Below, piece by piece: positions 5,202 to 60,642 of a DNA stretch of 64,000 nt. Both the position numbers and the translations under genes were made by a program. Each line of letters opens with the position of its first letter. Within the stretch, counting starts at the first letter, position 1. Location of the stretch: the IMG/VR virus record IMGVR_UViG_2703718815_000003. The stretch is one strand, 5' to 3'. A model generated the notes under the pieces. That model saw nothing but the letters and a program-made list of their open reading frames with translations, searched no databases and was not told where the DNA came from. The DNA is from a virus. Lineage: Duplodnaviria; Heunggongvirae; Uroviricota; Caudoviricetes.

Positions 5202-5255
5202 TTTTCACCCTTGTTTTTATCAACACAATATGGCCGATCATGCGGCCATATCAGA

Positions 5256-5825
5256 TCAATTAGAGCTTTGAAAGACTTTGTGTGGTTGTGTTGCGAGGTT
5301 ATGTCGATGGCTTAACTCACGCATCATGTCTTCAAGCCGACTCTTTGTGTCGTCGAGTTGGTCGGCCATTGCTCCCAAAAGCTGACGAACGGCCATCGGA
5401 TCATCGCTGTTTAGTGATGGCATTTTATAACCCGCCTGAGAAGACATAAGATTGAACGCAGACATCAACATCGTTAGAGAGGATTTAAGCCCAGCAATTT
5501 CACGATCTTTGCTGGCAATAATCGCCTCACTCTTGTTAGTGTCATCAGTTCGTTGAGTCTCGCTCACCATATCCAAAGTCGCCTGCAACTTATCAGCGCG
5601 CTCTTTTTCAGCAAGATAATGAACACCGAAATGATGTGCTAAAGCTACAACCTGAGTTGGCTCTTCAAAGGTGGACTCAAAATTAAGTGCTGTAACCACT
5701 CTCTCAAATATGGAAACGTCTTCTATTCCTCGAAGAATGGCTAACATTTTGACCAGTTCATTAGCATCCATTTCTTCGAATAAGGCGTTTTGTTCATCAG
5801 CTATCGCTTTGCATTTCTTGCACAT
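5256..5825 (-). CDS. hypothetical protein
   Basis: 189-aa ORF; AAACAAGTTGTTT palindrome 20-30 nt upstream of start. Confidence 0.4.
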   Translation of the reverse strand: MCKKCKAIADEQNALFEEMDANELVKMLAILRGIEDVSIFERVVTALNFESTFEEPTQVVALAHHFGVHYLAEKERADKLQATLDMVSETQRTDDTNKSEAIIASKDREIAGLKSSLTMLMSAFNLMSSQAGYKMPSLNSDDPMAVRQLLGAMADQLDDTKSRLEDMMRELSHRHNLATQPHKVFQSSN

Positions 5826-6122
5826 GTGTTTTTCCTAATGCTTAAACAAGTTGTTTTCTTATTGGCTTTATTGTGATGTGGCATAAAAGGGGAGCAAGCT
5901 AAACGTAAAGGTGCAAACTCTCTATTTCGGTCAACGAAACACAAGGGCCATTTGGCCCTTGTCATTAACACGTTGCTTTACGGACTAGCGGATAAGCGAA
6001 GTAGATCGCCAGACCAATGAGGACGCCATCAGAAATGACAGACATCATCTTTCCCGTAAAATCCACCAACACCGCCATCACCAGAAGAGCAATGACGATC
6101 ACAAGCCGGAATCTCTCAAGCA

Positions 6123-13446: not shown

Positions 13447-14530
13447 GAATTAAAACCTCGTCCCATTTGAAATCATCCAACTCTGACCATTCATGAGGGA
13501 AAATAACGACCGGATCTGAATGCTCTGGAGCCTGTCGTTTCATTAGCTCACACACACCTTCCATGTGGTTGTTGTACAAATGCACGTCAAAGCCAAAATG
13601 CACAAATGCACCGGCCATGTGACCCGTAATCTTCGCGAGAAAATGAGTGAGAATGCCATAGCCAGCAATATTGAATGGCATACCAACAAAAGTGTCTACG
13701 CTACGCTGTACGAGGCAGGAGTTGAGGATGCGTTTGGGGATTCCAAGTTCATCCAGTTCAGCTTCAGTAACACTGCCGTCCATCTCCAGATCGTATAGCA
13801 TCTTGGTGTAGATAGACTCGTAACCGAGGCGACTGTGTTGAAGACCAATGTCAGTTGCCATCGTTAAACGGGTTTCAAAATCCAGCTCACGACTCCACAA
13901 AGAGAAGACAAAGTGGCAAGGTGGCAGTTTCATATCCTCAAGCTCGCCTACGTTCCATGCGTTAAGCATGATGCGACGATCGGTAGGGTTCGTGCGCAGT
14001 GTATCGACAATACGCTGTAGCTGATCGATTTCACGGGACAGCACTACGCGATCTTCACTGATACCCAGGTATCCCTCGACTTTGTACCCGCGTTCACGGA
14101 AAGTAGCGATCTTGCTCAGATATTCACTATGGCTCACGATGCGGGTATCTTCCCATCGACGCCACTGCTTACCGTAAACCGGCCCCAAATCGCCATTCTC
14201 ATCGGCCCATGCATCCCAAATCTTAACGCCGTTATCCTTGAGAAATTGGATGTTGCCCGTGCCTTTCAGATACCACTCAAGTTCGACAAGCAGTGGCTTA
14301 AGATTTACCGCCTTTCCAGAAATAAGCGGCACAGTCCCACCAGTAAGCATGTAGTAAGAGGGAACGTAGCAGGTGCTTAAAGTACCAGTGCCTGTGCGAT
14401 CATCAGCCTGCACGCCGCTTTTAAGCACCGTCTCAATAACTTTTGCATACGATGCGTTTGTTACCTGACCGTTCGTATGCTCACGATTCAAAAGGAGTGA
14501 CACAAAAACCTCACAAAGATAAGTAACCAC
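13400..14530 (-). CDS. thyA: thymidylate synthase (ThyA type, with insertion)
   Basis: DRTGTGT, WADENGDLGPVYGKQWR, RRIMLNAWNVGELEDMKLPPCH, HLYNNH, YDPLSWIKVPVAV match ThyA; ~45-aa insertion after catalytic Cys. Confidence 0.85.
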   Translation of the reverse strand: MVTYLCEVFVSLLLNREHTNGQVTNASYAKVIETVLKSGVQADDRTGTGTLSTCYVPSYYMLTGGTVPLISGKAVNLKPLLVELEWYLKGTGNIQFLKDNGVKIWDAWADENGDLGPVYGKQWRRWEDTRIVSHSEYLSKIATFRERGYKVEGYLGISEDRVVLSREIDQLQRIVDTLRTNPTDRRIMLNAWNVGELEDMKLPPCHFVFSLWSRELDFETRLTMATDIGLQHSRLGYESIYTKMLYDLEMDGSVTEAELDELGIPKRILNSCLVQRSVDTFVGMPFNIAGYGILTHFLAKITGHMAGAFVHFGFDVHLYNNHMEGVCELMKRQAPEHSDPVVIFPHEWSELDDFKWDEVLILGYDPLSWIKVPVAV

Positions 14531-14580
14531 TTATTAATTACGTGAGTTTACATTTATTGAGAGAACAAGACCAGACAGAT

Positions 14581-19224: not shown

Positions 19225-19258
19225 ATGTTAATAGATAAGCACTTACCTATCAATGAAA

Positions 19259-24861: not shown

Positions 24862-24900
24862 CTGTAAGCCGCGCCACGACTGGTCTGAAGCCATGTTCAT

Positions 24901-25002
24901 GTATGCTGTCAGCGGTAATTGATAGTCTGTCAGCGGTTCACCGTATGCTGCCAACTGTTTTTGGTATTCTGTCAGCGGCAAATCAAGTATGCTGTCAGCG
25001 GT
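24901..25002 (+). repeat. iteron array upstream of repA (5 direct repeats of GTATGCTGTCAGCGGT)
   Basis: copies at 24901, 24925, 24943, 24966, 24987, spaced 18-24 bp. Confidence 0.8.
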
Positions 25003-25022
25003 TGAATGACAAAGGTGTCCAC

Positions 25023-26117
25023 ATGTCCACAAAAAATAAAAAAGGTAAAAATAACAAAGAAGTAGAAGATAATCTCGACAACTTTGAAGAAGGTTCCCTT
25101 GAATTGTACACAGGGGAACTTGTCCCTAATAGCAACAATACAGTCCAACCAATTGCGTTGATGCGGCTGGGATTGTTCGTGCCCACGCTCAAGGGGACAA
25201 AATACAGCAAGCGTAACAAGCCAAATGAGATCGATGCTTCAAAGGAGCTTGTTCAGCTCGAAGTAGCCCGTTCTGAAGGCTATTCCGATATCAAGATAAC
25301 CGGTCCTCGTCTCGACATGGATCATGATTTCAAAACGTGGGTGGGCGTTGTGCGTTCGCTGGCAGAATACGGCGAACCTAACGGTCGTGTCGAGTTAAGC
25401 ATCACGAAATTTGCGAAGTTTTGTGGCTATCCATCGTCACAGATCCGCAAAACACTCCGCGACCGGCTTACAAACAGTCTTTTGAAGATCATGCGTACAA
25501 CTCTGTCTTTCCAGAGAACGTATGAAGAAAAGAACGTCGACGGCTCTAACAAGATCTCGCTTCTGATGGTGCACCTCATCAATAGCGTGGACTACAACGA
25601 GCAGAAAGATACGGTGGTGTTCTATGCAGAACCGAAGCTGGCCGAACTATATCGCTTTGACCATAAGGTTCTTTTGCAGTTAAAGGTTATCAATAAGCTA
25701 CCACGCAAAGAAACAGCACAGGCTCTGTACACCTTCATCGAAAGTCTTCCAACCAAGCCTGCGCCGGTATCGCTTGCTCGATTGCGTGCGCGACTCAATT
25801 TGAGTAGCAGGAATGTCAGCTCGCAGAATCAGACTATACGCAACGGCTTAAAAGCTCTCCAAGATTTGGGTTATCTCGAATACAGCGAGATTAAGCGAGG
25901 GCGGTCGATCTATATCCAGATTCACAGCCGCAATCCAAAACTCAAAGTCGCACCGCCAAAACCTGAAGACATCGAACCCAAAAAACTAGATGAGAAAGCT
26001 GGGGAAATTGATGCCAAACAGAACATTATCAACAAGATAACCGAACTTTCGCAGAATTTGACGCCTGAAAATATCAAGATGATTGAGATCCTTTCCAATA
26101 GTCTCAAACTGCTTTGA
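25023..26117 (+). CDS. repA: iteron-binding replication initiator RepA-like protein
   Basis: only long plus-strand ORF here; bracketed by direct-repeat arrays; start placed at ATG 25023 after last upstream iteron (ORF track starts at 24903 inside the iterons). Confidence 0.65.
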   Translation: MSTKNKKGKNNKEVEDNLDNFEEGSLELYTGELVPNSNNTVQPIALMRLGLFVPTLKGTKYSKRNKPNEIDASKELVQLEVARSEGYSDIKITGPRLDMDHDFKTWVGVVRSLAEYGEPNGRVELSITKFAKFCGYPSSQIRKTLRDRLTNSLLKIMRTTLSFQRTYEEKNVDGSNKISLLMVHLINSVDYNEQKDTVVFYAEPKLAELYRFDHKVLLQLKVINKLPRKETAQALYTFIESLPTKPAPVSLARLRARLNLSSRNVSSQNQTIRNGLKALQDLGYLEYSEIKRGRSIYIQIHSRNPKLKVAPPKPEDIEPKKLDEKAGEIDAKQNIINKITELSQNLTPENIKMIEILSNSLKLL

Positions 26118-26649
26118 TATGCTGTCAGCGGTGAAATGTATGCTATCAGCGGCTATTTTTCTGAAAAGTATGCTGTAAACGGTTAAATATATGCTACCAG
26201 CGGTATAGTGAGATGAACGTATGCTGTGGGCGGTAAATCATCTATCACCACTCAATGCTCTGTCATACCTCCCCAGTGGTTACTAACCTCGAAGAGTGCA
26301 TTCCATATAGGTTTGCGCTCACTAACATTCTATTGCTATTGCGCTGATTGCTTGTAGTGAAAGGCATTTATTGCCTGCTGCTCCCTGATAGAACGTATGC
26401 TGTCAGCGGTGTTTTATTGAGGAATTTTTGTTTGGATATGCTATCAGCGGTAATTAATGGTATATGTCAGACCTTCGTATGCTGCCAGCGGTAATTTTGT
26501 TCTGGTTATACCCATACCGGTACACATTATTCATGCAATGTCTTAAGTATGCTGTCAGCGGTAAAAAATCGAGTAAAGTATGCTGTGAGCGGTGAGATAG
26601 ACTCTCGATATGCTATCAGCGGTAGTTGATTGTGTATGCTGTCAGCGGT
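26118..26649 (+). repeat. iteron arrays downstream of repA (12 direct repeats in two clusters)
   Basis: copies at 26118, 26138, 26169, 26189, 26219 and 26395, 26436, 26477, 26547, 26578, 26608, 26634. Confidence 0.8.
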
Positions 26650-26696
26650 GACGACTATGAAATATGACTGCGGAACGTGCCGCAGTCAGTTTGCAT

Positions 26697-27790: not shown

Positions 27791-28216
27791 TCAATCTTCT
27801 TGTTTAGGGAAAAACTGTTCAATAACTCTGTCAACGGCTGTGTCTATATGGAGTAGATGCCACACAACCATATCTTTGCTTCCCATGCCTTGTGTGAATA
27901 TCACGTCATACTTACGCCATGCGCAGTGGAACCAATATGCTGAGTCATCAATTGGTAAATCCTCTCCCGCCTCTTTGAAGTATTTCAGCAGCATTGCCTG
28001 CTCTGCCGTTGGCGTTGGACCTATTTCCTGAGCGTACATACGGATGAATCGCTGCCAGTCTGTCTCCTCGGGGGTTGGATCTGGTGGGGTCATTTCTGCG
28101 ATAGCGTTTCGTAGTTGATGCGCCCAATCAGGTTCAGGAAAGCCTTTTGCTGCTTCATCATCAATAACATCCAGAGCCACGTTTGCGGCATCGTAGAGTT
28201 TCTTAATAGCTGTCAT
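27791..28216 (-). CDS. hypothetical protein
   Basis: 141-aa ORF; AAACAAATTATTT palindrome-like motif upstream. Confidence 0.4.
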   Translation of the reverse strand: MTAIKKLYDAANVALDVIDDEAAKGFPEPDWAHQLRNAIAEMTPPDPTPEETDWQRFIRMYAQEIGPTPTAEQAMLLKYFKEAGEDLPIDDSAYWFHCAWRKYDVIFTQGMGSKDMVVWHLLHIDTAVDRVIEQFFPKQED

Positions 28217-28265: not shown

Positions 28266-28291
28266 TAAAAAAGGCGTCCAACTGGACGCCT
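28266..28291 (-). terminator. intrinsic terminator
   Basis: aggcgtcc-aact-ggacgcct hairpin with A6 on plus strand (U6 on minus). Confidence 0.65.
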
Positions 28292-28307: not shown

Positions 28308-29138
28308 TTATTTCACTGTAATGAAAGGAGTGTTAGCCCCTTGAGTCATGTACTGCGGTAACTGGCCATTCCATTTATTGATGGCTTCCAGTTCCATAAC
28401 GTTCGGGTTTTGACGCAGAGCTTCACCGCGCAGACGAATGGCGTCTGCTTCTGCTTGCGCACGAGCACGGATAGCATCAGCTTCACCATTAGCCTGTTCA
28501 CGTAGCATATTCGCCTCAGCTTTACGTTGTTCAACTTCCTGCTGACGTTGCAGAGTACGCTGGTTAGCCGTTACTTTGGCGTTAATAGATTCAATGACGG
28601 TTTTTGGGTAATCAGGCTTTCCAACCCATGACAGGCTCAGTACCTCAATACCAACCGGAGACATCTCTTTCTGAATATCTTTCAGTGCGTTGTCCAGCAA
28701 TTGTGCCTTACCACCGTCGATAAATGAGTCAGTGGTCATACGGCTGGCCAAACGGTTTAGAGAGTCGGCAATTTTCTGACGCAGATCTGATTCGGTGATA
28801 TCGTCTACGCCTTTGCGATAGGTCTGGAACACCGTCGTTACCTTGTCACGATTAACCAGATACGCAACGCCAATTTTGTGACCAATAGCAGTACCGTCAC
28901 TCATCTGGAATGTGAACGGCTCGTCGTAGGTCTTCATTTGTTTGAAGGTCGGGAATACGTAAAGTTCGGTGTTAAGACCTGTCCATTGGCGACCAACGCC
29001 AACTACTTCACCAATCCCTTTGTCTTCACCTAATTTGTTTACTTTGATGCCAACGTATCCAGGCTCCACGCGATCACAGCCAGTAAGACCCATTGTGCAA
29101 ACAGCGGCCACGATCACTGCCAGTAAACCTTTCTTCAT
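28308..29138 (-). CDS. SPFH/band-7 domain lipoprotein
   Basis: lipobox LTGC after signal peptide; SPFH-like core followed by Ala/Glu/Arg-rich coiled-coil. Confidence 0.6.
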   Translation of the reverse strand: MKKGLLAVIVAAVCTMGLTGCDRVEPGYVGIKVNKLGEDKGIGEVVGVGRQWTGLNTELYVFPTFKQMKTYDEPFTFQMSDGTAIGHKIGVAYLVNRDKVTTVFQTYRKGVDDITESDLRQKIADSLNRLASRMTTDSFIDGGKAQLLDNALKDIQKEMSPVGIEVLSLSWVGKPDYPKTVIESINAKVTANQRTLQRQQEVEQRKAEANMLREQANGEADAIRARAQAEADAIRLRGEALRQNPNVMELEAINKWNGQLPQYMTQGANTPFITVK

Positions 29139-29141
29139 TAC

Positions 29142-29342
29142 TTACTTCTCCTTCGAATTGATGAGTGACTTTAGAAACTTACGACCTGCAATAAACCCGA
29201 TCACAGGAGCGCCAAAAGCAACGATGATTCCAAGCATTACGGCAATGTCGCTTTTAGTAGAGATCAGCGACGGAACCAGCAAACAGTAGATGAAAACTAC
29301 AGATAGACCTGTAACTACTGCCATAAGATAGAGTTTGATCAT
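29142..29342 (-). CDS. small two-helix membrane protein (operon partner of SPFH gene)
   Basis: 66-aa ORF, two hydrophobic segments, 3-nt gap to SPFH gene. Confidence 0.4.
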   Translation of the reverse strand: MIKLYLMAVVTGLSVVFIYCLLVPSLISTKSDIAVMLGIIVAFGAPVIGFIAGRKFLKSLINSKEK

Positions 29343-29403
29343 GTGTTTTCCTATGTGGTTATTGTGTGCTAATGATAAGTAAGTGCTTATACATTTTCAA
29401 TAT

Positions 29404-29429
29404 ACAAAAAAGGCGTCCGTTTGGACGCC
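29404..29429 (-). terminator. intrinsic terminator
   Basis: ggcgtcc-gttt-ggacgcc hairpin preceded by A7 on plus strand. Confidence 0.65.
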
Positions 29430-29435
29430 TGATAA

Positions 29436-31775
29436 TTAATCTTCTAGTTCTTCTGTTGGTGATGTCTTCTCTCGTCGGTCATCTATCGTCTGTAAAGCCG
29501 CAATGATTTCAGCTAGTGGCTTCTCCCGATACATCTCGACGATCTGTGATTTGGTGTATTTCTTGTCACCAATTTCAACTCGCCCGCTGGCGTTCTTTGG
29601 CAGGTATCCTTCTTCCAGCATGTACTCGACGAGCGACTCGATAACGTCGAGGCCACGAGTAGGATCGAAGTAGAATTTCCAGGTGCATTTGCCATACGGT
29701 GGTGCAACTTTGTTTTTGATGCACTCTGCGCCTACGTCCTGACCGATCTTCTCTTTCCCATCCTTCATCACCGATGCACCGAGACGGATGCGCACAGAAG
29801 CGTAAAACTTCGGTGAATCGCCGCCTGGCGACGTAGTAGGGTCGCCAAACATTACACCGATTTTTGTGCGAACCTGATTCAAGAAGATGATGCAGGCGTT
29901 GTATTTGCGTGCCCACAAAGCCAGAGTAGGGAAGTTCGCACTCGTCGCACGAGCCAGTGCCGTATTGTCGTTCATGTTCAGCTGATCTTTGTCTTTGGCA
30001 GTGCCTTCAGCCATCTTTTCGAACTTCTCGGCTTTGGAGTTCGGAACCATAGACGCAAGTGAGTCAGCCACGATACAGATAGGTGCTGATTCAGGAATAA
30101 GCTCTTCATCACGTACCAATTTAAGAATTGTGCCGATCAACTCTACAGAGTCTTCGAAGGTATCAGGCTGCTTGTATACCCACTGACCGTCATCCTCATC
30201 TGCGTTCAGACCATTGGCGACAGCCAGGCCAACGTCAAAACTGTTTTCATGATCGAGGAATACCGCCAGACCATCTTGTTTTTGAGCGGAGATCATCGCT
30301 GCTGTTGCAAGGAATGTGTTGTGGCTGATAATCCCGTTAGACCAGAAAGAGTGTGTTTCCGGCATCGCTACGTCGAACGTTGGTGCTTCACCTTCCTCAA
30401 TAGCCACGACTTCGTCGTAGAACAAGTTAGAGCCAATTACCGCTGCCAGTTGTGCAAACAGATGCTCGTTAAAACGATTCTTTCTGCCAATGAAGGAGAC
30501 ATAGATTTCTCGCAGTTTGTCTATTCCGACACGATCGCCGCGGCCAATAACGTGGTCTACCAGAGCGTAGTCTTCACGGGTGGTCTTGGTGAGCGACTCG
30601 TAGAGTGATTTCACTAAGCCGCTGATGTGCGGAACATAGCCTGAGTAAGTGCGGTCAAAACCAATGTCCCGTTTGGTTGCCACTGATAAACGTGCCGGAG
30701 ATTCGAAACCAATCGTTGACAGAAAAAGGTCGTAATTAGAGCCACTGAATGACAGCCGGTAATATGTATTTTCATAACCCGCGACGTGTTTTTCAGAGAT
30801 AGTTGACGTAATCCCCAGATTCAGGAGCATGAGGCGAATTTGCTGTAGCAGCAGCCCACTCGCGCTCACAACCTCAATGCAGCGACCATCATTGACGTGG
30901 CATTCCAGCTCAAAGTAGCCGCGAAGGAATGCAATTTGAGCCTCGCTATTGGCGCGACGCACACTCAACGGAACCTGCTTGCCAGCAGCTTTCTCATACT
31001 CCAGACCATATTCTTTAAAAAGCAGCGAACGCACCTCTTTGCTAAACAGCACATGGTCTTCCGAGCCGTTATGTTTTCTCGTAACTGGCATCTTGTCTGA
31101 TACCAGCGAAATGAGGCGGTAGTACTCATCCTTGATGAAAGGATCTGTGTTAGAAAAATTCACTGAATTTTCAGAGGCCACGTATCCGTCAGCAATTAAA
31201 TAGCCCATCAGTTTTGCGATATTGGCATCCAGGTGCTGATCGCCGAATTGATGTGTGCCAACCATTGAAGGAATCGTGTCGCCTACACTGATTTTTTCAG
31301 CATGTCGCCAGACGACATTACCTAAGTCGTCAACCACACGGATTGGGTGACGGAACGTAGCCTCGATATAACCGCCTGATGCCAGCTTAATACGCTTGAA
31401 TTTGCGACGGTTGTTCCATGTCAGGTGTGAGGTCTTCTCTATCACGCCATTTTCATTGATGAGTCCAACGTTATGCTCTACATCGCGAGTAGTGCATGTC
31501 GCTTTGTACCCTTCAATCTCAAACAACTCTTTCACTGTTACCATTCCACGCTCCGTCAGCAGCATGGTGTCTGCGGTAACACATTTCCCTGCACTTGGAG
31601 GACCGAATACTTCGACGATACGACCACATGGGAAGCCGCCATCGTAACGACCGGAAATAGCTTTGTTTAACGGTGGAAAGCCTGTATCAATCCAATGAGT
31701 TACTTTCTGAATTTCGTCGTTGCTACCGATTTTCTTTTTCAGAGCAAGTGCCAGTGCGGATTTTCCTTTTGCCAT
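29436..31775 (-). CDS. RecA-like recombinase interrupted by an intein
   Basis: extein: Walker A GPPSAGK|T split by insert, plus NQVRTKIGVMFGDPTTSPGGDSPKFYASVR RecA core; extein about 357 aa. Confidence 0.8.
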   Translation of the reverse strand: MAKGKSALALALKKKIGSNDEIQKVTHWIDTGFPPLNKAISGRYDGGFPCGRIVEVFGPPSAGKCVTADTMLLTERGMVTVKELFEIEGYKATCTTRDVEHNVGLINENGVIEKTSHLTWNNRRKFKRIKLASGGYIEATFRHPIRVVDDLGNVVWRHAEKISVGDTIPSMVGTHQFGDQHLDANIAKLMGYLIADGYVASENSVNFSNTDPFIKDEYYRLISLVSDKMPVTRKHNGSEDHVLFSKEVRSLLFKEYGLEYEKAAGKQVPLSVRRANSEAQIAFLRGYFELECHVNDGRCIEVVSASGLLLQQIRLMLLNLGITSTISEKHVAGYENTYYRLSFSGSNYDLFLSTIGFESPARLSVATKRDIGFDRTYSGYVPHISGLVKSLYESLTKTTREDYALVDHVIGRGDRVGIDKLREIYVSFIGRKNRFNEHLFAQLAAVIGSNLFYDEVVAIEEGEAPTFDVAMPETHSFWSNGIISHNTFLATAAMISAQKQDGLAVFLDHENSFDVGLAVANGLNADEDDGQWVYKQPDTFEDSVELIGTILKLVRDEELIPESAPICIVADSLASMVPNSKAEKFEKMAEGTAKDKDQLNMNDNTALARATSANFPTLALWARKYNACIIFLNQVRTKIGVMFGDPTTSPGGDSPKFYASVRIRLGASVMKDGKEKIGQDVGAECIKNKVAPPYGKCTWKFYFDPTRGLDVIESLVEYMLEEGYLPKNASGRVEIGDKKYTKSQIVEMYREKPLAEIIAALQTIDDRREKTSPTEELED
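30318..31583 (-). mobile_element. intein with LAGLIDADG homing-endonuclease domain inside the recombinase P-loop
   Basis: begins with Cys after GPPSAGK, block B TFRHP, LAGLIDADG-like LMGYLIADGY and LRGYFELE, ends ...IISHN followed by Thr (+1 nucleophile). Confidence 0.7.
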
Positions 31776-34077: not shown

Positions 34078-34194
34078 GTGTTTCTCCTTGTTGTGATTTG
34101 GCCGATGGCGCTATGCGCGTTGGGCTTTCGTTCATTCGTGGCTCTTTCGAGCTGTTCAATGATAGATCAGTACTTACTTATTATCTATCAAAAA

Positions 34195-46685: not shown

Positions 46686-47463
46686 AATTCGGCACTGCCA
46701 GTATTTATTACTCAACAGTGCCAATCGCGACGGTTTAGTTTCTGCCAGGAAACGCACCGCTACTTGCACTTTTCGTTAGTGCCAGACGCTTTCGACTTCG
46801 CTCAATAGTAGAAGGCAAAATCTTTAAGTAGATGATGTTTCTGAGGACAGCACCTACTTTGTAATTTATACAATGTGATGTATGGAATCATTTGTTGTGA
46901 AAACAGGCACCAATGGCAACAGTGGTTAAACCTACACAACAATCCTGTCTTCACAACGTTGAGGCCACTACTCCGATTGAATGTTTGCCCAACATGTTAC
47001 ATATCAACGCTCGCCGGTATCTCTGTGAATAGAACCTTAGAATTGATAAAAATGTAATGGCCTCAACGTTGTGTGCTGGCTAACCATACCAGCCGGGCTA
47101 CGTCGCCGCTTTTTAACCCAGTATAAACGACATAATTGAACAAAATGACGTAACAGGATGGGCGGTCAGAGGCTAAGAATCCGGGAGTCATATGGAGTTG
47201 AAAATATACCGACCGCCCATTCTGTTACTTCATCGGAGGGAACACTCATGTTCCCTCCTGCGTTCTGCAATCACACTCGCTCAGTGTGTCCCATTTCGGT
47301 AACGAGGCTGGAAACTGACCTCGCTGGTGTTTGGCTTATTAGGCTACTGCCAGATAGACTTCTTCGTTTGCACTTGTATTTAAGTTCAAACAGTCGCGTC
47401 TCAACGAAAACAAAGTCATCTTATACATAAAAGATAAGTAAGTAAATACTTATTATTGTGTTT

Positions 47464-59740: not shown

Positions 59741-59802
59741 GAATCGTCAAATCGGGATGGCGGTTTTATATCATAAAACGCCCACACTTGGTAGGTAAGT
59801 AC

Positions 59803-60642
59803 TTACACATGAGCGCCGTAAATTGCCCCAACTTTAGTCCAAGTTGGAGCATTACCAGTAACAGCTTTACCAGCTGCTCCGCCGTTATATTCTGTACCGT
59901 TACCTTGAGTATTACATCTTCCTCCAGCAGCACCGACATTACCACCCGAACCGCCTGTATATGCACTAAGAGACCCCTCACCAACAGATCCTTTACCAGG
60001 AGCGGAAATAGTACCAGCAGTTGCACCGGAACTCATATGAGAGGAAGACCCACCAGCACCGAATGGGCGACCACCGCCACCACCAAATATTAGTTTACCC
60101 CTGTTACCGCCGCCACCGCCGCCGCCACCTCCAGCGATTGCACCATTATTCGTAATACGCAAGCGTGTACCGATGCCATTATTAATTGCGTTACCACCAG
60201 CAGCACCGGCAGCGTTACTACCACCATTGCCACCGCGTCCATAGACAGTCACACCTGCGTTGATTACAAGGCTGATATAAGAGTTGGTAAGTGAACTCGG
60301 GAAATCTAAACATGGCACGCCGCTACTGGACGACACCAGATCCCCTGTAATGGTAACAACGACTGGCGTCGCCCCCTGGGATTTTAAATAGTTGATCAGT
60401 GTGTCTTTGTTGTAGTTATGATTCGCACCGATGCTGTACTGAACTTCTTTAGATCGCCCGGCCATTTGAGACATTGAACCAGCCGCTGGCAGTTGCACCG
60501 CCGTTCGAGCCGCACTCATCCATCTCTGGCCTGTCACACTGACAGCCGAAGACCCAATCCAACCGGGAACACCGACAATTGGCACATCTAATCTCCTTTT
60601 TGATGTGAATATCCTGAATTGGTGAGGGTGGCCCCTCACCAT
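59803..60642 (-). CDS. glycine-rich protein, possible tail-fibre adhesin/accessory protein
   Basis: 279 aa with poly-Gly stretches (GGGGGGGGGN, GGGGGRPFGAGG) immediately downstream of tail fibre gene. Confidence 0.4.
   Translation of the reverse strand: MVRGHPHQFRIFTSKRRLDVPIVGVPGWIGSSAVSVTGQRWMSAARTAVQLPAAGSMSQMAGRSKEVQYSIGANHNYNKDTLINYLKSQGATPVVVTITGDLVSSSSGVPCLDFPSSLTNSYISLVINAGVTVYGRGGNGGSNAAGAAGGNAINNGIGTRLRITNNGAIAGGGGGGGGGNRGKLIFGGGGGRPFGAGGSSSHMSSGATAGTISAPGKGSVGEGSLSAYTGGSGGNVGAAGGRCNTQGNGTEYNGGAAGKAVTGNAPTWTKVGAIYGAHV

Follow-up and report, generated by a model that had tools for sequence, protein, structure and literature searches.

In the 64,000-nucleotide stretch of viral DNA analysed here (the window; IMG/VR record IMGVR_UViG_2703718815_000003, Caudoviricetes), two adjacent minus-strand genes at positions 28308 to 29342 encode a small membrane protein of 66 amino acids (aa) and a 276-aa lipoprotein of the SPFH/band-7 type. 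As judged from sequence comparison, this pair is a widespread, conserved and mobile module of temperate as well as virulent phages. The association of an SPFH protein with a partner is itself a known theme; the two-gene phage module described here, so far uncharacterised, stands out by its predicted topology and by a family of partner proteins that is dedicated to it. We propose that the two proteins would form one complex, in which the lipoprotein builds a ring or cage at the host inner membrane, on the periplasmic side, and the small protein provides its transmembrane part.

A two-gene module shared by temperate and virulent phages

Over 1.8 kb, the region around the pair shares 98% identity with Escherichia phage Cyrano; its identity to Salmonella phage SSU5 is 78%. 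Cyrano is an SSU5-like phage-plasmid of E. coli LF82 (PMC9928086), in which the two genes are annotated as CYRAN_56 ('membrane protein') and CYRAN_57 (labelled 'Stomatin-like integral membrane protein') and are flanked by a RecA-like recombinase gene on one side and by small hypothetical genes toward repA on the other. Relatives of the SPFH protein extend far beyond this group. A tblastn search found them in 425 of 50,697 phage records (about 0.8%), and 417 of these matches cover at least 80% of the query. Among the temperate carriers are phiP27, Stx2 phages, the P2-like phage P88, the P1-like phage RCS47 and Burkholderia phiE125. The virulent carriers comprise N4-like phages of Erwinia, Klebsiella and Escherichia, Vequintavirinae, Pseudomonas Bruynoghevirus, phages of about 145 kb that infect Klebsiella, Salmonella and Cronobacter, Caulobacter phiCbK-like phages, and Lak phages. 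The SPFH gene often adjoins replication or early genes. An earlier note on this DNA, made from the letters alone, had called such a protein unusual in a phage replication region; with phrog_200 relatives in 425 phage records, often in just that position, this view does not hold.

Linkage of the two genes was assessed in 80 viral and 80 genomic loci, from which all six-frame open reading frames (ORFs; 15,915 in 1.57 Mb) were scanned with profiles. The partner gene lay directly upstream of the SPFH gene, on the same strand, in 61 of 62 non-redundant loci of the SPFH subfamily. Conversely, the partner profile gave 125 hits among the 15,915 ORFs, all of them adjacent to or fused with an SPFH gene and none elsewhere. 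About one-third of the loci had supplied sequences for the partner profile; the rest were independent of it, including phiE125 gp44, Cupriavidus, Luteibacter and Methylumidiphilus. Seen from the partner side, a Band_7 gene was found directly downstream in three of the four lineages sampled. The same two-helix protein is also encoded ahead of the SPFH homologue in phage P88, in Erwinia phage S6 and in Proteus phage Mydo. The distant members occur mostly in prophage settings, with integrases, a DnaB-type helicase or a primase in the vicinity, and a few in cellular settings. A narrow distribution of the partner, as suggested by tblastn (6 phage records) and by a single-sequence protein search (close relatives only), proved to be wrong: the partner diverges too fast for simple searches, and its breadth is seen only by combining the scan of neighbouring ORFs with a profile.

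Some loci depart from the usual layout or its annotation. The small gene is present in phiP27 (locus L004, 2316-2504) and RCS47 (L005, 2284-2520), where it is unannotated. In chromosomal prophages of Shigella flexneri (L094) and E. coli (L095), about 770 bp separate the partner and SPFH genes (at about 5230-5997), and no convincing ORF was found in that interval. In Mydo, the genes of the partner (gp156) and of the SPFH lipoprotein (gp154) have between them a 54-aa soluble charged ORF (gp155; L007, 2344-2508), which may be a further component that the module has gained. On a prophage-like contig (L173/L174, 2501-2722), a partner homologue of 73 aa (P0211) is followed directly by an Arc-like gene with no SPFH gene. 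The gene order in one Pseudomonas prophage is partner, SPFH, Arc, and the arrangement on the contig looks like a deletion of the SPFH gene.

An SPFH lipoprotein and its two-helix partner

The 276-aa protein begins with MKKGLLAVIVAAVCTMGLTG followed directly by Cys, so that its lipobox, LTGC, occupies residues 18-21. It matches Pfam Band_7 (PF01145) at residues 23-209 over nearly the entire profile (positions 2-176 of 176; E value 2.6e-30; 106.2 bits against a cut-off of 23.6), and in PHROGs it belongs to phrog_200 ('lipoprotein'; E 2.6e-107). Both the SPFH/band-7 assignment, for which the earlier note had proposed a profile search, and the lipobox were thus confirmed. A conserved motif, AINKWNGxLP...PF, lies in the C-terminal part of the protein. 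When the PDB was searched with a profile built from nine family members, prohibitin-1, HflK, HflC and QmcA were retrieved at E values of 3e-5 to 1e-3, the best sequence match being PHB1 (E 2.8e-5, residues 20-233). The AlphaFold model (predicted local distance difference test score, 78) consists of a signal-peptide helix (residues 3-17), strands (20-95), helices (97-162) and one helix of 65 residues (179-243). Full-length Foldseek matches of this model, at E values of 1e-14 to 1e-8, were HflC (7vhq_G, E 1.5e-14), prohibitin-2, erlin-1/2, HflK, stomatin and flotillin, and QmcA was also aligned. The PDB titles of these matches name SPFH complexes. Complexes of this kind are known to form rings or cages, and the predicted model has the SPFH fold together with a long coiled-coil helix, as in the cage-forming members.

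Orthology to HflK or HflC was considered and rejected. In NCBIfam, the score against the HflC equivalog (TIGR01932) was 30.2 bits with a cut-off of 134.4, and that against the HflK equivalog (TIGR01933) was 18.7 bits with a cut-off of 159.4, both for partial matches within residues 115-240. Many records label the SPFH gene 'serine protease'. The protein contains no protease domain, and the label probably stems from the old group name 'membrane protease subunit'.

The 66-aa partner has hydrophobic helices at residues of about 5-23 and 33-51, a basic residue near its N-terminus and a basic C-terminal tail. The hydrophobicity of the ORF therefore bears out the earlier description of a two-helix membrane protein of this length. 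The two helices are joined by a short conserved loop, VPSLISTKSD, and the inter-helix motif P-x-(L/M)-(I/V)-S-x-x-(S/D)-T is kept from enterobacteria to Xanthomonadales, Dependentiae and an actinobacterial genome. The protein matches phrog_1130 ('membrane protein'; E 3.3e-25), as do 15 of 22 divergent partners (the window protein and 21 homologues), and PHROGs files it under 'moron, auxiliary metabolic gene and host takeover'. Pfam gave no match for the window protein at E<=0.01, and NfeD (PF01957) was not among the families listed at E<=10 for the 22 divergent partners. Only about 15 residues follow helix 2, which leaves no space for the OB-fold domain of NfeD. The suggestion of an NfeD-like partner must therefore be dropped.

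The two genes evolve at different rates. Among SSU5-like relatives, the ratio of nonsynonymous to synonymous substitution rates (dN/dS) is about 0.03 for the SPFH gene and 0.16-0.25 for the small gene, and the products are 93% and 56% identical, respectively, to their SSU5 homologues. The dN/dS values of the small gene, along with the confinement of its profile hits to SPFH loci, argue against a chance ORF. As far as sequence comparison can tell, it is a real, fast-evolving gene. When two loci (L011 and L017) were compared with window positions 28308-29342, synonymous divergence was about 0.04 in the SPFH gene and about 0.7 in the small gene, which indicates a recombination breakpoint between the two genes.

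Fusions and anchoring signals point to a periplasmic SPFH domain

We then considered on which side of the membrane the two proteins are placed. In-frame fusions of the two genes have arisen three times independently: in an Iamiaceae genome (L122), in L115, and in an enterobacterial RCS47-type variant (P0041, eight member sequences). In the fusions, the partner is followed by a basic linker, a signal peptide with lipobox, and the SPFH domain. This order implies that the C-terminus of the partner is cytoplasmic and that the SPFH domain is exported.

The N-terminus of the window protein (MKK, a hydrophobic core and LTGC) agrees with the lipobox consensus [LVI][ASTVI][GAS]C and predicts lipidation at Cys21. 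A lipobox was detected in 102 of 119 close homologues, 95 of which read Cys-Asp-Arg-Val at this point, as the window protein does. In E. coli, Asp at position +2 is the signal that retains a lipoprotein in the inner membrane. The remaining 17 close homologues have no detectable lipobox, and at least 10 of them carry the C21Y change (GIIGYDRV instead of GLTGCDRV); more distant relatives on Sutterella and Hallella contigs lack it as well. Such forms can be anchored only by an uncleaved inner-membrane helix. Taken together, Asp at +2, the Cys-less variants and the fusions favour the periplasmic side of the inner membrane, which is also the site of HflK/C, as the predicted location of the SPFH domain. 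The variants with Tyr in place of the lipobox Cys (P0022-P0031) form a common E. coli sublineage, 93-95% identical, one of whose members (P0025) was found on 175 contigs.

The pair forms a self-contained transcription unit

Both ORFs lie on the minus strand, the small gene first and the SPFH gene second, with 3 bases (29141-29139) between the TAA of the small gene (29144-29142) and the ATG of the 276-aa gene. The Shine-Dalgarno sequence of the SPFH gene falls within the small gene, which suggests translational coupling. The complete order is terminator, promoter, small gene, SPFH gene, terminator (Table 1). The first terminator, that of the RecA gene upstream, insulates the cassette against read-through, and the last one, a hairpin at 28291-28272, follows the SPFH gene; the two-gene operon with a 3-nucleotide gap and a terminator, as the earlier note had read it, is thus well founded. 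With its own promoter and terminators on either side, the pair is a self-contained transcription unit, and it has one hallmark of a moron, namely a promoter and terminator of its own that set it apart from the neighbouring operons. A comparison of 35 SSU5-like loci (from E. coli, Salmonella, Kluyvera, Buttiauxella and Yersinia pestis) shows that both hairpins and the promoter, spacer included, are kept while the flanks drift. Each of the two terminators is kept in all of the SSU5-like loci, the upstream one with a compensatory stem change in L037/L039/L093, and the hairpin of the downstream one is terminator-like on both strands. Rfam and a check for opposite-strand ORFs yielded nothing in the cassette.

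Table 1. Features of the two-gene cassette and sites of the 17-nucleotide motif (window positions)
Feature	Position	Strand	Basis or remark
Intrinsic terminator of upstream RecA (intein) gene	29411..29430	-	8-bp stem, 6 G-C pairs, T-run (consensus scan)
Sigma-70-like promoter, TTGAAA-17 nt-TATCAT	29372..29400	-	10/12 consensus matches
Spacer motif TATAAGCACTTACTTAT, palindromic consensus core AAGTACTT	29375..29391	-	candidate operator, repeated elsewhere in phage
Ribosome-binding region AGGAAAACAC before small gene	29343..29352	-	read from sequence; conserved in relatives
Small partner gene, 66 aa, phrog_1130	29142..29342	-	two predicted transmembrane helices
Shine-Dalgarno AAGGAG of SPFH gene	29148..29153	-	within 3' end of small gene, 9 nt before ATG
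Signal peptide of the lipoprotein (residues 1-20), with lipobox Cys21 (codon 29078-29076) and Asp22 after it	29076..29138	-	sequence
SPFH/band-7 lipoprotein gene, 276 aa, phrog_200	28308..29138	-	Pfam, PHROGs, model
Cassette intrinsic terminator	28272..28291	-	8-bp stem, 6 G-C pairs, T-run; 16 nt past SPFH stop
17-nucleotide motif sites	14519-14535(-), 19234-19250(+), 29375-29391(-), 34165-34181(+), 47438-47454(-), 59791-59807(-)		

Published RNA-seq data on LF82 allowed us to follow the Cyrano pair in the lysogen. In overnight cultures in lysogeny broth (LB), CYRAN_56 had no reads and CYRAN_57 about 8 fragments per kilobase per million (FPKM), with the repressor at about 96 and repA at about 133 (PMC9928086, S1 Table). 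Neither gene was among those that exceeded the prophage background 5-fold or more in LB. After 6 h in macrophages, CYRAN_56 and CYRAN_57 reached about 150-200 FPKM, a rise of about 20-fold or more, and the flanking RecA gene and CYRAN_58 stayed at background, as did the genes for exonuclease, single-stranded DNA-binding protein (SSB) and polymerase (PMC9928086). Such expression agrees with a unit under joint control and insulated from its neighbours, which is kept off in standard culture and turned on under particular conditions. CYRAN_44, CYRAN_46, CYRAN_60-62, several structural genes and toxin-antitoxin loci also rose at 6 h (PMC9928086), so that the rise may reflect either a specific stress response or a partial derepression. 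The pair is not among the 13 morons listed for Cyrano (PMC9928086).

The spacer of the cassette promoter holds a copy of a 17-nucleotide motif, TATAAGYACTTACTTAT, with the palindromic core shown in Table 1 and the near-palindromic consensus TATAAGTACTTACTTAT. It occurs 6 times in the window as against 0.18 times expected from shuffled sequences. The mapped sites are intergenic, and one stands directly after a terminator hairpin, as at the cassette. This pattern suggests a phage-wide regulatory site, perhaps an operator, perhaps an element of phage-specific promoters. The other five sites are not consistently located before genes that rise together with the cassette, as exemplified by the site between uvsY and the SSB gene. 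No LexA, PhoP or CpxR box was seen in the cassette promoter by eye, without a formal scan.

A proposed membrane complex and its rivals

On the basis of fold, topology and linkage, we propose that the products of the two genes make up a single membrane complex. In it, the 276-aa protein would be exported, lipid-anchored at Cys21 and retained in the inner membrane, with its SPFH domain and long helix facing the periplasm, and its subunits would use the long helix to oligomerise, giving a ring or cage that covers a patch of inner membrane. As for the 66-aa partner, it would be a hairpin with both ends in the cytoplasm, and its conserved periplasmic loop would contact the SPFH subunits. It would supply the transmembrane part that in HflK and HflC is carried by the same polypeptide, so the pair may be regarded as an HflK/C-like unit split into two genes. 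The cage would fence in or shield an inner-membrane client. Since HflK/C and the prohibitins both partner FtsH-type proteases, the FtsH protease is the first candidate for this client by homology. As a result, the turnover of membrane proteins or the robustness of the membrane would change, either in the early phase of phage development or in a lysogen under stress. Lipidation, retention in the inner membrane, cage formation and contact with the partner are what we infer from the sequences and the model; which client it is, and what the phage gains by it, is speculative. We regard the complex and its cage as probable, and give the whole explanation, including control of a client, a probability of about 0.35. 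A more ambitious version, to which we lend only tentative credence, is that the pair represents a previously unrecognised type of phage-borne SPFH system, a periplasmic lipid-anchored cage of the prohibitin/HflK kind with a two-helix partner, which hundreds of temperate and virulent phages would use to take over a function of the host inner membrane, for example by capturing FtsH from HflK/C or by closing the membrane to incoming DNA.

Several observations weigh against this proposal. The scores against HflK and HflC are so far under the equivalog cut-offs that the link to FtsH is not transferable by orthology. The monomer model is of low confidence over its last 24 residues. Outside the enterobacterial temperate group, position +2 is not Asp; Pseudomonas and Xanthomonadales have Ser-Lys after the Cys, Erwinia phage S6 has Tyr and Mydo has Glu. 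A candidate relative from Pasteurella was found in outer-membrane vesicles (PMC9872710). Furthermore, Pseudomonas phage Ab22 is without the canonical partner and one prophage has the partner without the SPFH gene, so that the partnership is strong but not absolute.

Two other roles are serious rivals, and both are compatible with the cage model and not mutually exclusive with it. One is superinfection exclusion, in which the complex would block DNA entry or envelope penetration by later phages from the periplasmic face of the inner membrane. That site is the barrier crossed by incoming DNA, the module is present in virulent and temperate phages and usually among early genes, as exclusion genes are, and the PHROGs category of the partner agrees with such a role. 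In addition, the pair lies downstream of an S24-type repressor gene, in the same orientation, in a Pseudomonas prophage, which resembles the cI-rexAB arrangement of lambda. However, the cassette is nearly silent in the Cyrano lysogen in LB, unlike what is expected of a standing exclusion function of a prophage, and cellular, non-phage relatives exist. We know of no exclusion protein with an SPFH fold. Neither protein matched a defence model of PADLOC-DB 2.0 at E<=0.1, a result by which a known defence system was also rejected. On balance, we consider exclusion rather unlikely. The other rival is a conditional lysogenic-conversion cassette that would serve envelope robustness or host interaction under stress, as in macrophages, with any lytic role being secondary. 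The cassette's own promoter and terminators, and its strong rise in macrophages while neighbouring lytic genes are off, are in line with this, as is PM0222, a candidate relative in a Pasteurella multocida prophage that affects virulence and signals through Toll-like receptors 1 and 2 (TLR1/2) (PMC9872710). The pMT1 gene YPMT1.49c of Yersinia pestis, homologous according to a note in the phiE125 annotation, has likewise been listed with potential virulence genes (PMC3521224). Strictly virulent phages, which have no lysogen, carry the same module, and the rise in macrophages is shared by other Cyrano genes, including structural ones, and could be partial derepression. A conversion role is unlikely in our estimate.

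The remaining possibilities are less compatible with what was found. It is improbable that the small protein is an active viroporin-, holin- or toxin-like peptide, restrained or timed by the SPFH cage in a module for lysis timing, abortive infection or addiction. Class II holins and small membrane toxins do share its size and topology (a pair of helices with both termini inside, and a basic tail), channels are gated by SPFH proteins of the stomatin type, and the partner evolves much faster than the SPFH protein. The cassette lies outside the lysis region, which in Cyrano holds the holin, endolysin and spanins (CYRAN_22-25), and no holin or toxin family was matched above noise. Moreover, a pair of toxin and restrainer would not tolerate the prophage that keeps the small gene without the SPFH gene, and the fusions make both parts in a fixed 1:1 ratio. 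A canonical SPFH-NfeD operon, in which a short NfeD partner would bind the SPFH C-terminus through its OB-fold as in QmcA-YbbJ, is refuted at the level of sequence and hardly credible. The pair does have the usual layout, a small membrane-protein gene beside an SPFH gene in one operon, but there is neither an NfeD match nor space for the OB-fold in the roughly 15 residues after helix 2, and the tail is predicted to be cytoplasmic whereas the SPFH domain is predicted to be periplasmic. Finally, the earlier note had raised anchoring of the plasmid form to the membrane; the complex would then tether the replicon or serve the partition of the plasmid prophage. In favour of this, the cassette is close to repA, at a distance of about 2.2 kb, with about 1.7 kb to the nearer one of the two iteron arrays. 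The predicted export of the SPFH domain, which leaves only the partner tail of about 15 residues in the cytoplasm, and the presence of the module in phages that are never plasmids, such as the integrated prophages phiP27, P88 and those of Pseudomonas as well as virulent phages, make this very unlikely. The cassette is, besides, silent in LB, where the plasmid is stable at about 5.5 copies per cell.

Neighbouring genes and repeats

The gene upstream of the cassette (29436-31775, minus strand) encodes a RecA-like recombinase of 779 aa that contains an intein with a LAGLIDADG homing endonuclease (Pfam RecA, LAGLIDADG_3 and Intein_splicing). The SSU5 RecA orthologue, at 1077 nucleotides (about 358 aa), is presumably without an intein. 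Downstream of the cassette, the gene at 27791-28216 (minus strand) encodes a DUF7238 protein (Pfam E 2.3e-37). One homologue of 303 aa (P0038), in which the first 225 or so SPFH residues are joined to the C-terminal part of a DUF7238 protein, is presumably a deletion variant. Iteron arrays with the unit (G/A)TATGCTGTCAGCGGT flank repA, with at least 5 copies upstream (24899-25007) and at least 12 downstream (26115-26654). The upstream array extends over roughly the first 40 codons of the 404-aa repA ORF (24903-26117), whose true start is therefore probably further in. RepA of Cyrano is annotated at 351 aa.

Significance of the module

In the literature searched, the phage SPFH lipoprotein and its partner figure only in passing annotations and speculation, and no functional study of either was met with. 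A role of the phage SPFH gene in lysogeny has been speculated on (PMC8540360), and a 2026 paper that speculated on adsorption or DNA entry stated that the reason for the gene in phages 'remains unclear' (PMC13239085). The term 'band 7' in the phiCbK paper refers to gel bands and not to the protein family. The only experimentally studied candidate relative that we found is PM0222.

SPFH cages, such as those of HflK/C, prohibitin, stomatin, flotillin and erlin, have been resolved only recently, and their roles in bacteria are poorly understood. Being compact (276 and 66 aa), with scaffold and membrane parts that occur either split or fused, the phage pair could be a tractable minimal system for studying how a cage is assembled and what it contains. 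Its client, once found, would reveal a common route by which phages manipulate the inner membrane. Induction in macrophages of a prophage of adherent-invasive E. coli, together with the possible links to Pasteurella and Yersinia, adds an angle of host interaction. The comparison also uncovers gaps in annotation, in that the SPFH gene is widely called 'serine protease' and the partner is missing from several records, including those of phiP27 and RCS47.

Relation to known systems

By function, a plausible analogy is offered by T4 Imm and Sp, P22 SieA and HK97 gp15, which are small exclusion proteins of the inner membrane or periplasm expressed early or from the prophage. They have no relation to the phage pair in sequence or fold, and no SPFH protein is known among them. 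The SPFH-NfeD operons, QmcA-YbbJ (8z5g) among them, are the nearest functional analogy for a scaffold with a membrane-embedded partner, as they likewise assemble an SPFH protein with a small membrane protein. The NfeD-type partner has an OB-fold, whereas the phage partner has none and is unrelated in sequence; QmcA faces the cytoplasm, and the phage SPFH protein is predicted to be exported. The mitochondrial PHB1/PHB2 ring of prohibitin (8rrh, 9o9z) belongs to the same length class (272-299 aa) and has the same layout, with its domain facing the compartment equivalent to the periplasm. Unlike the phage protein, prohibitin is eukaryotic, a hetero-oligomer and anchored by a transmembrane helix, and we know of no small dedicated partner of this kind for it. 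In Bacillus subtilis, small membrane proteins are reported to bring to the membrane an SPFH protein encoded in the same operon, that of the PspA-YdjG/YdjH-YdjI (SamGHI) system, which is linked to membrane stress (PMC8581546; bioRxiv 10.64898/2026.02.06.704340). That SPFH protein is cytosolic, its partners are unrelated, and the system belongs to the host and not to a phage. PM0222 (Pmorf0222; GenBank OAZ06802.1) of P. multocida, the candidate relative, is a prophage-borne 'HflK/C-like' SPFH protein of 25-35 kDa (PMC9872710). It acts via TLR1/2, the sensor of triacylated lipoproteins, and was found in outer-membrane vesicles, with no partner gene described (PMC9872710).

The nearest bacterial relatives, by profile search and by full-length fold, are HflK/HflC of the HflK/HflC-FtsH complex of E. 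coli (7vhp, 7wi3, 9cz2). The phage protein shares with them an SPFH domain on the periplasmic side, predicted in its case, followed by a long helix, and a membrane anchor that is N-terminal to the SPFH domain. HflK and HflC are two paralogues, 419 and 334 aa long and held by a transmembrane helix; the phage version has one SPFH gene for a product of 276 aa, with a predicted lipid anchor and with helices contributed by the separate 66-aa protein.

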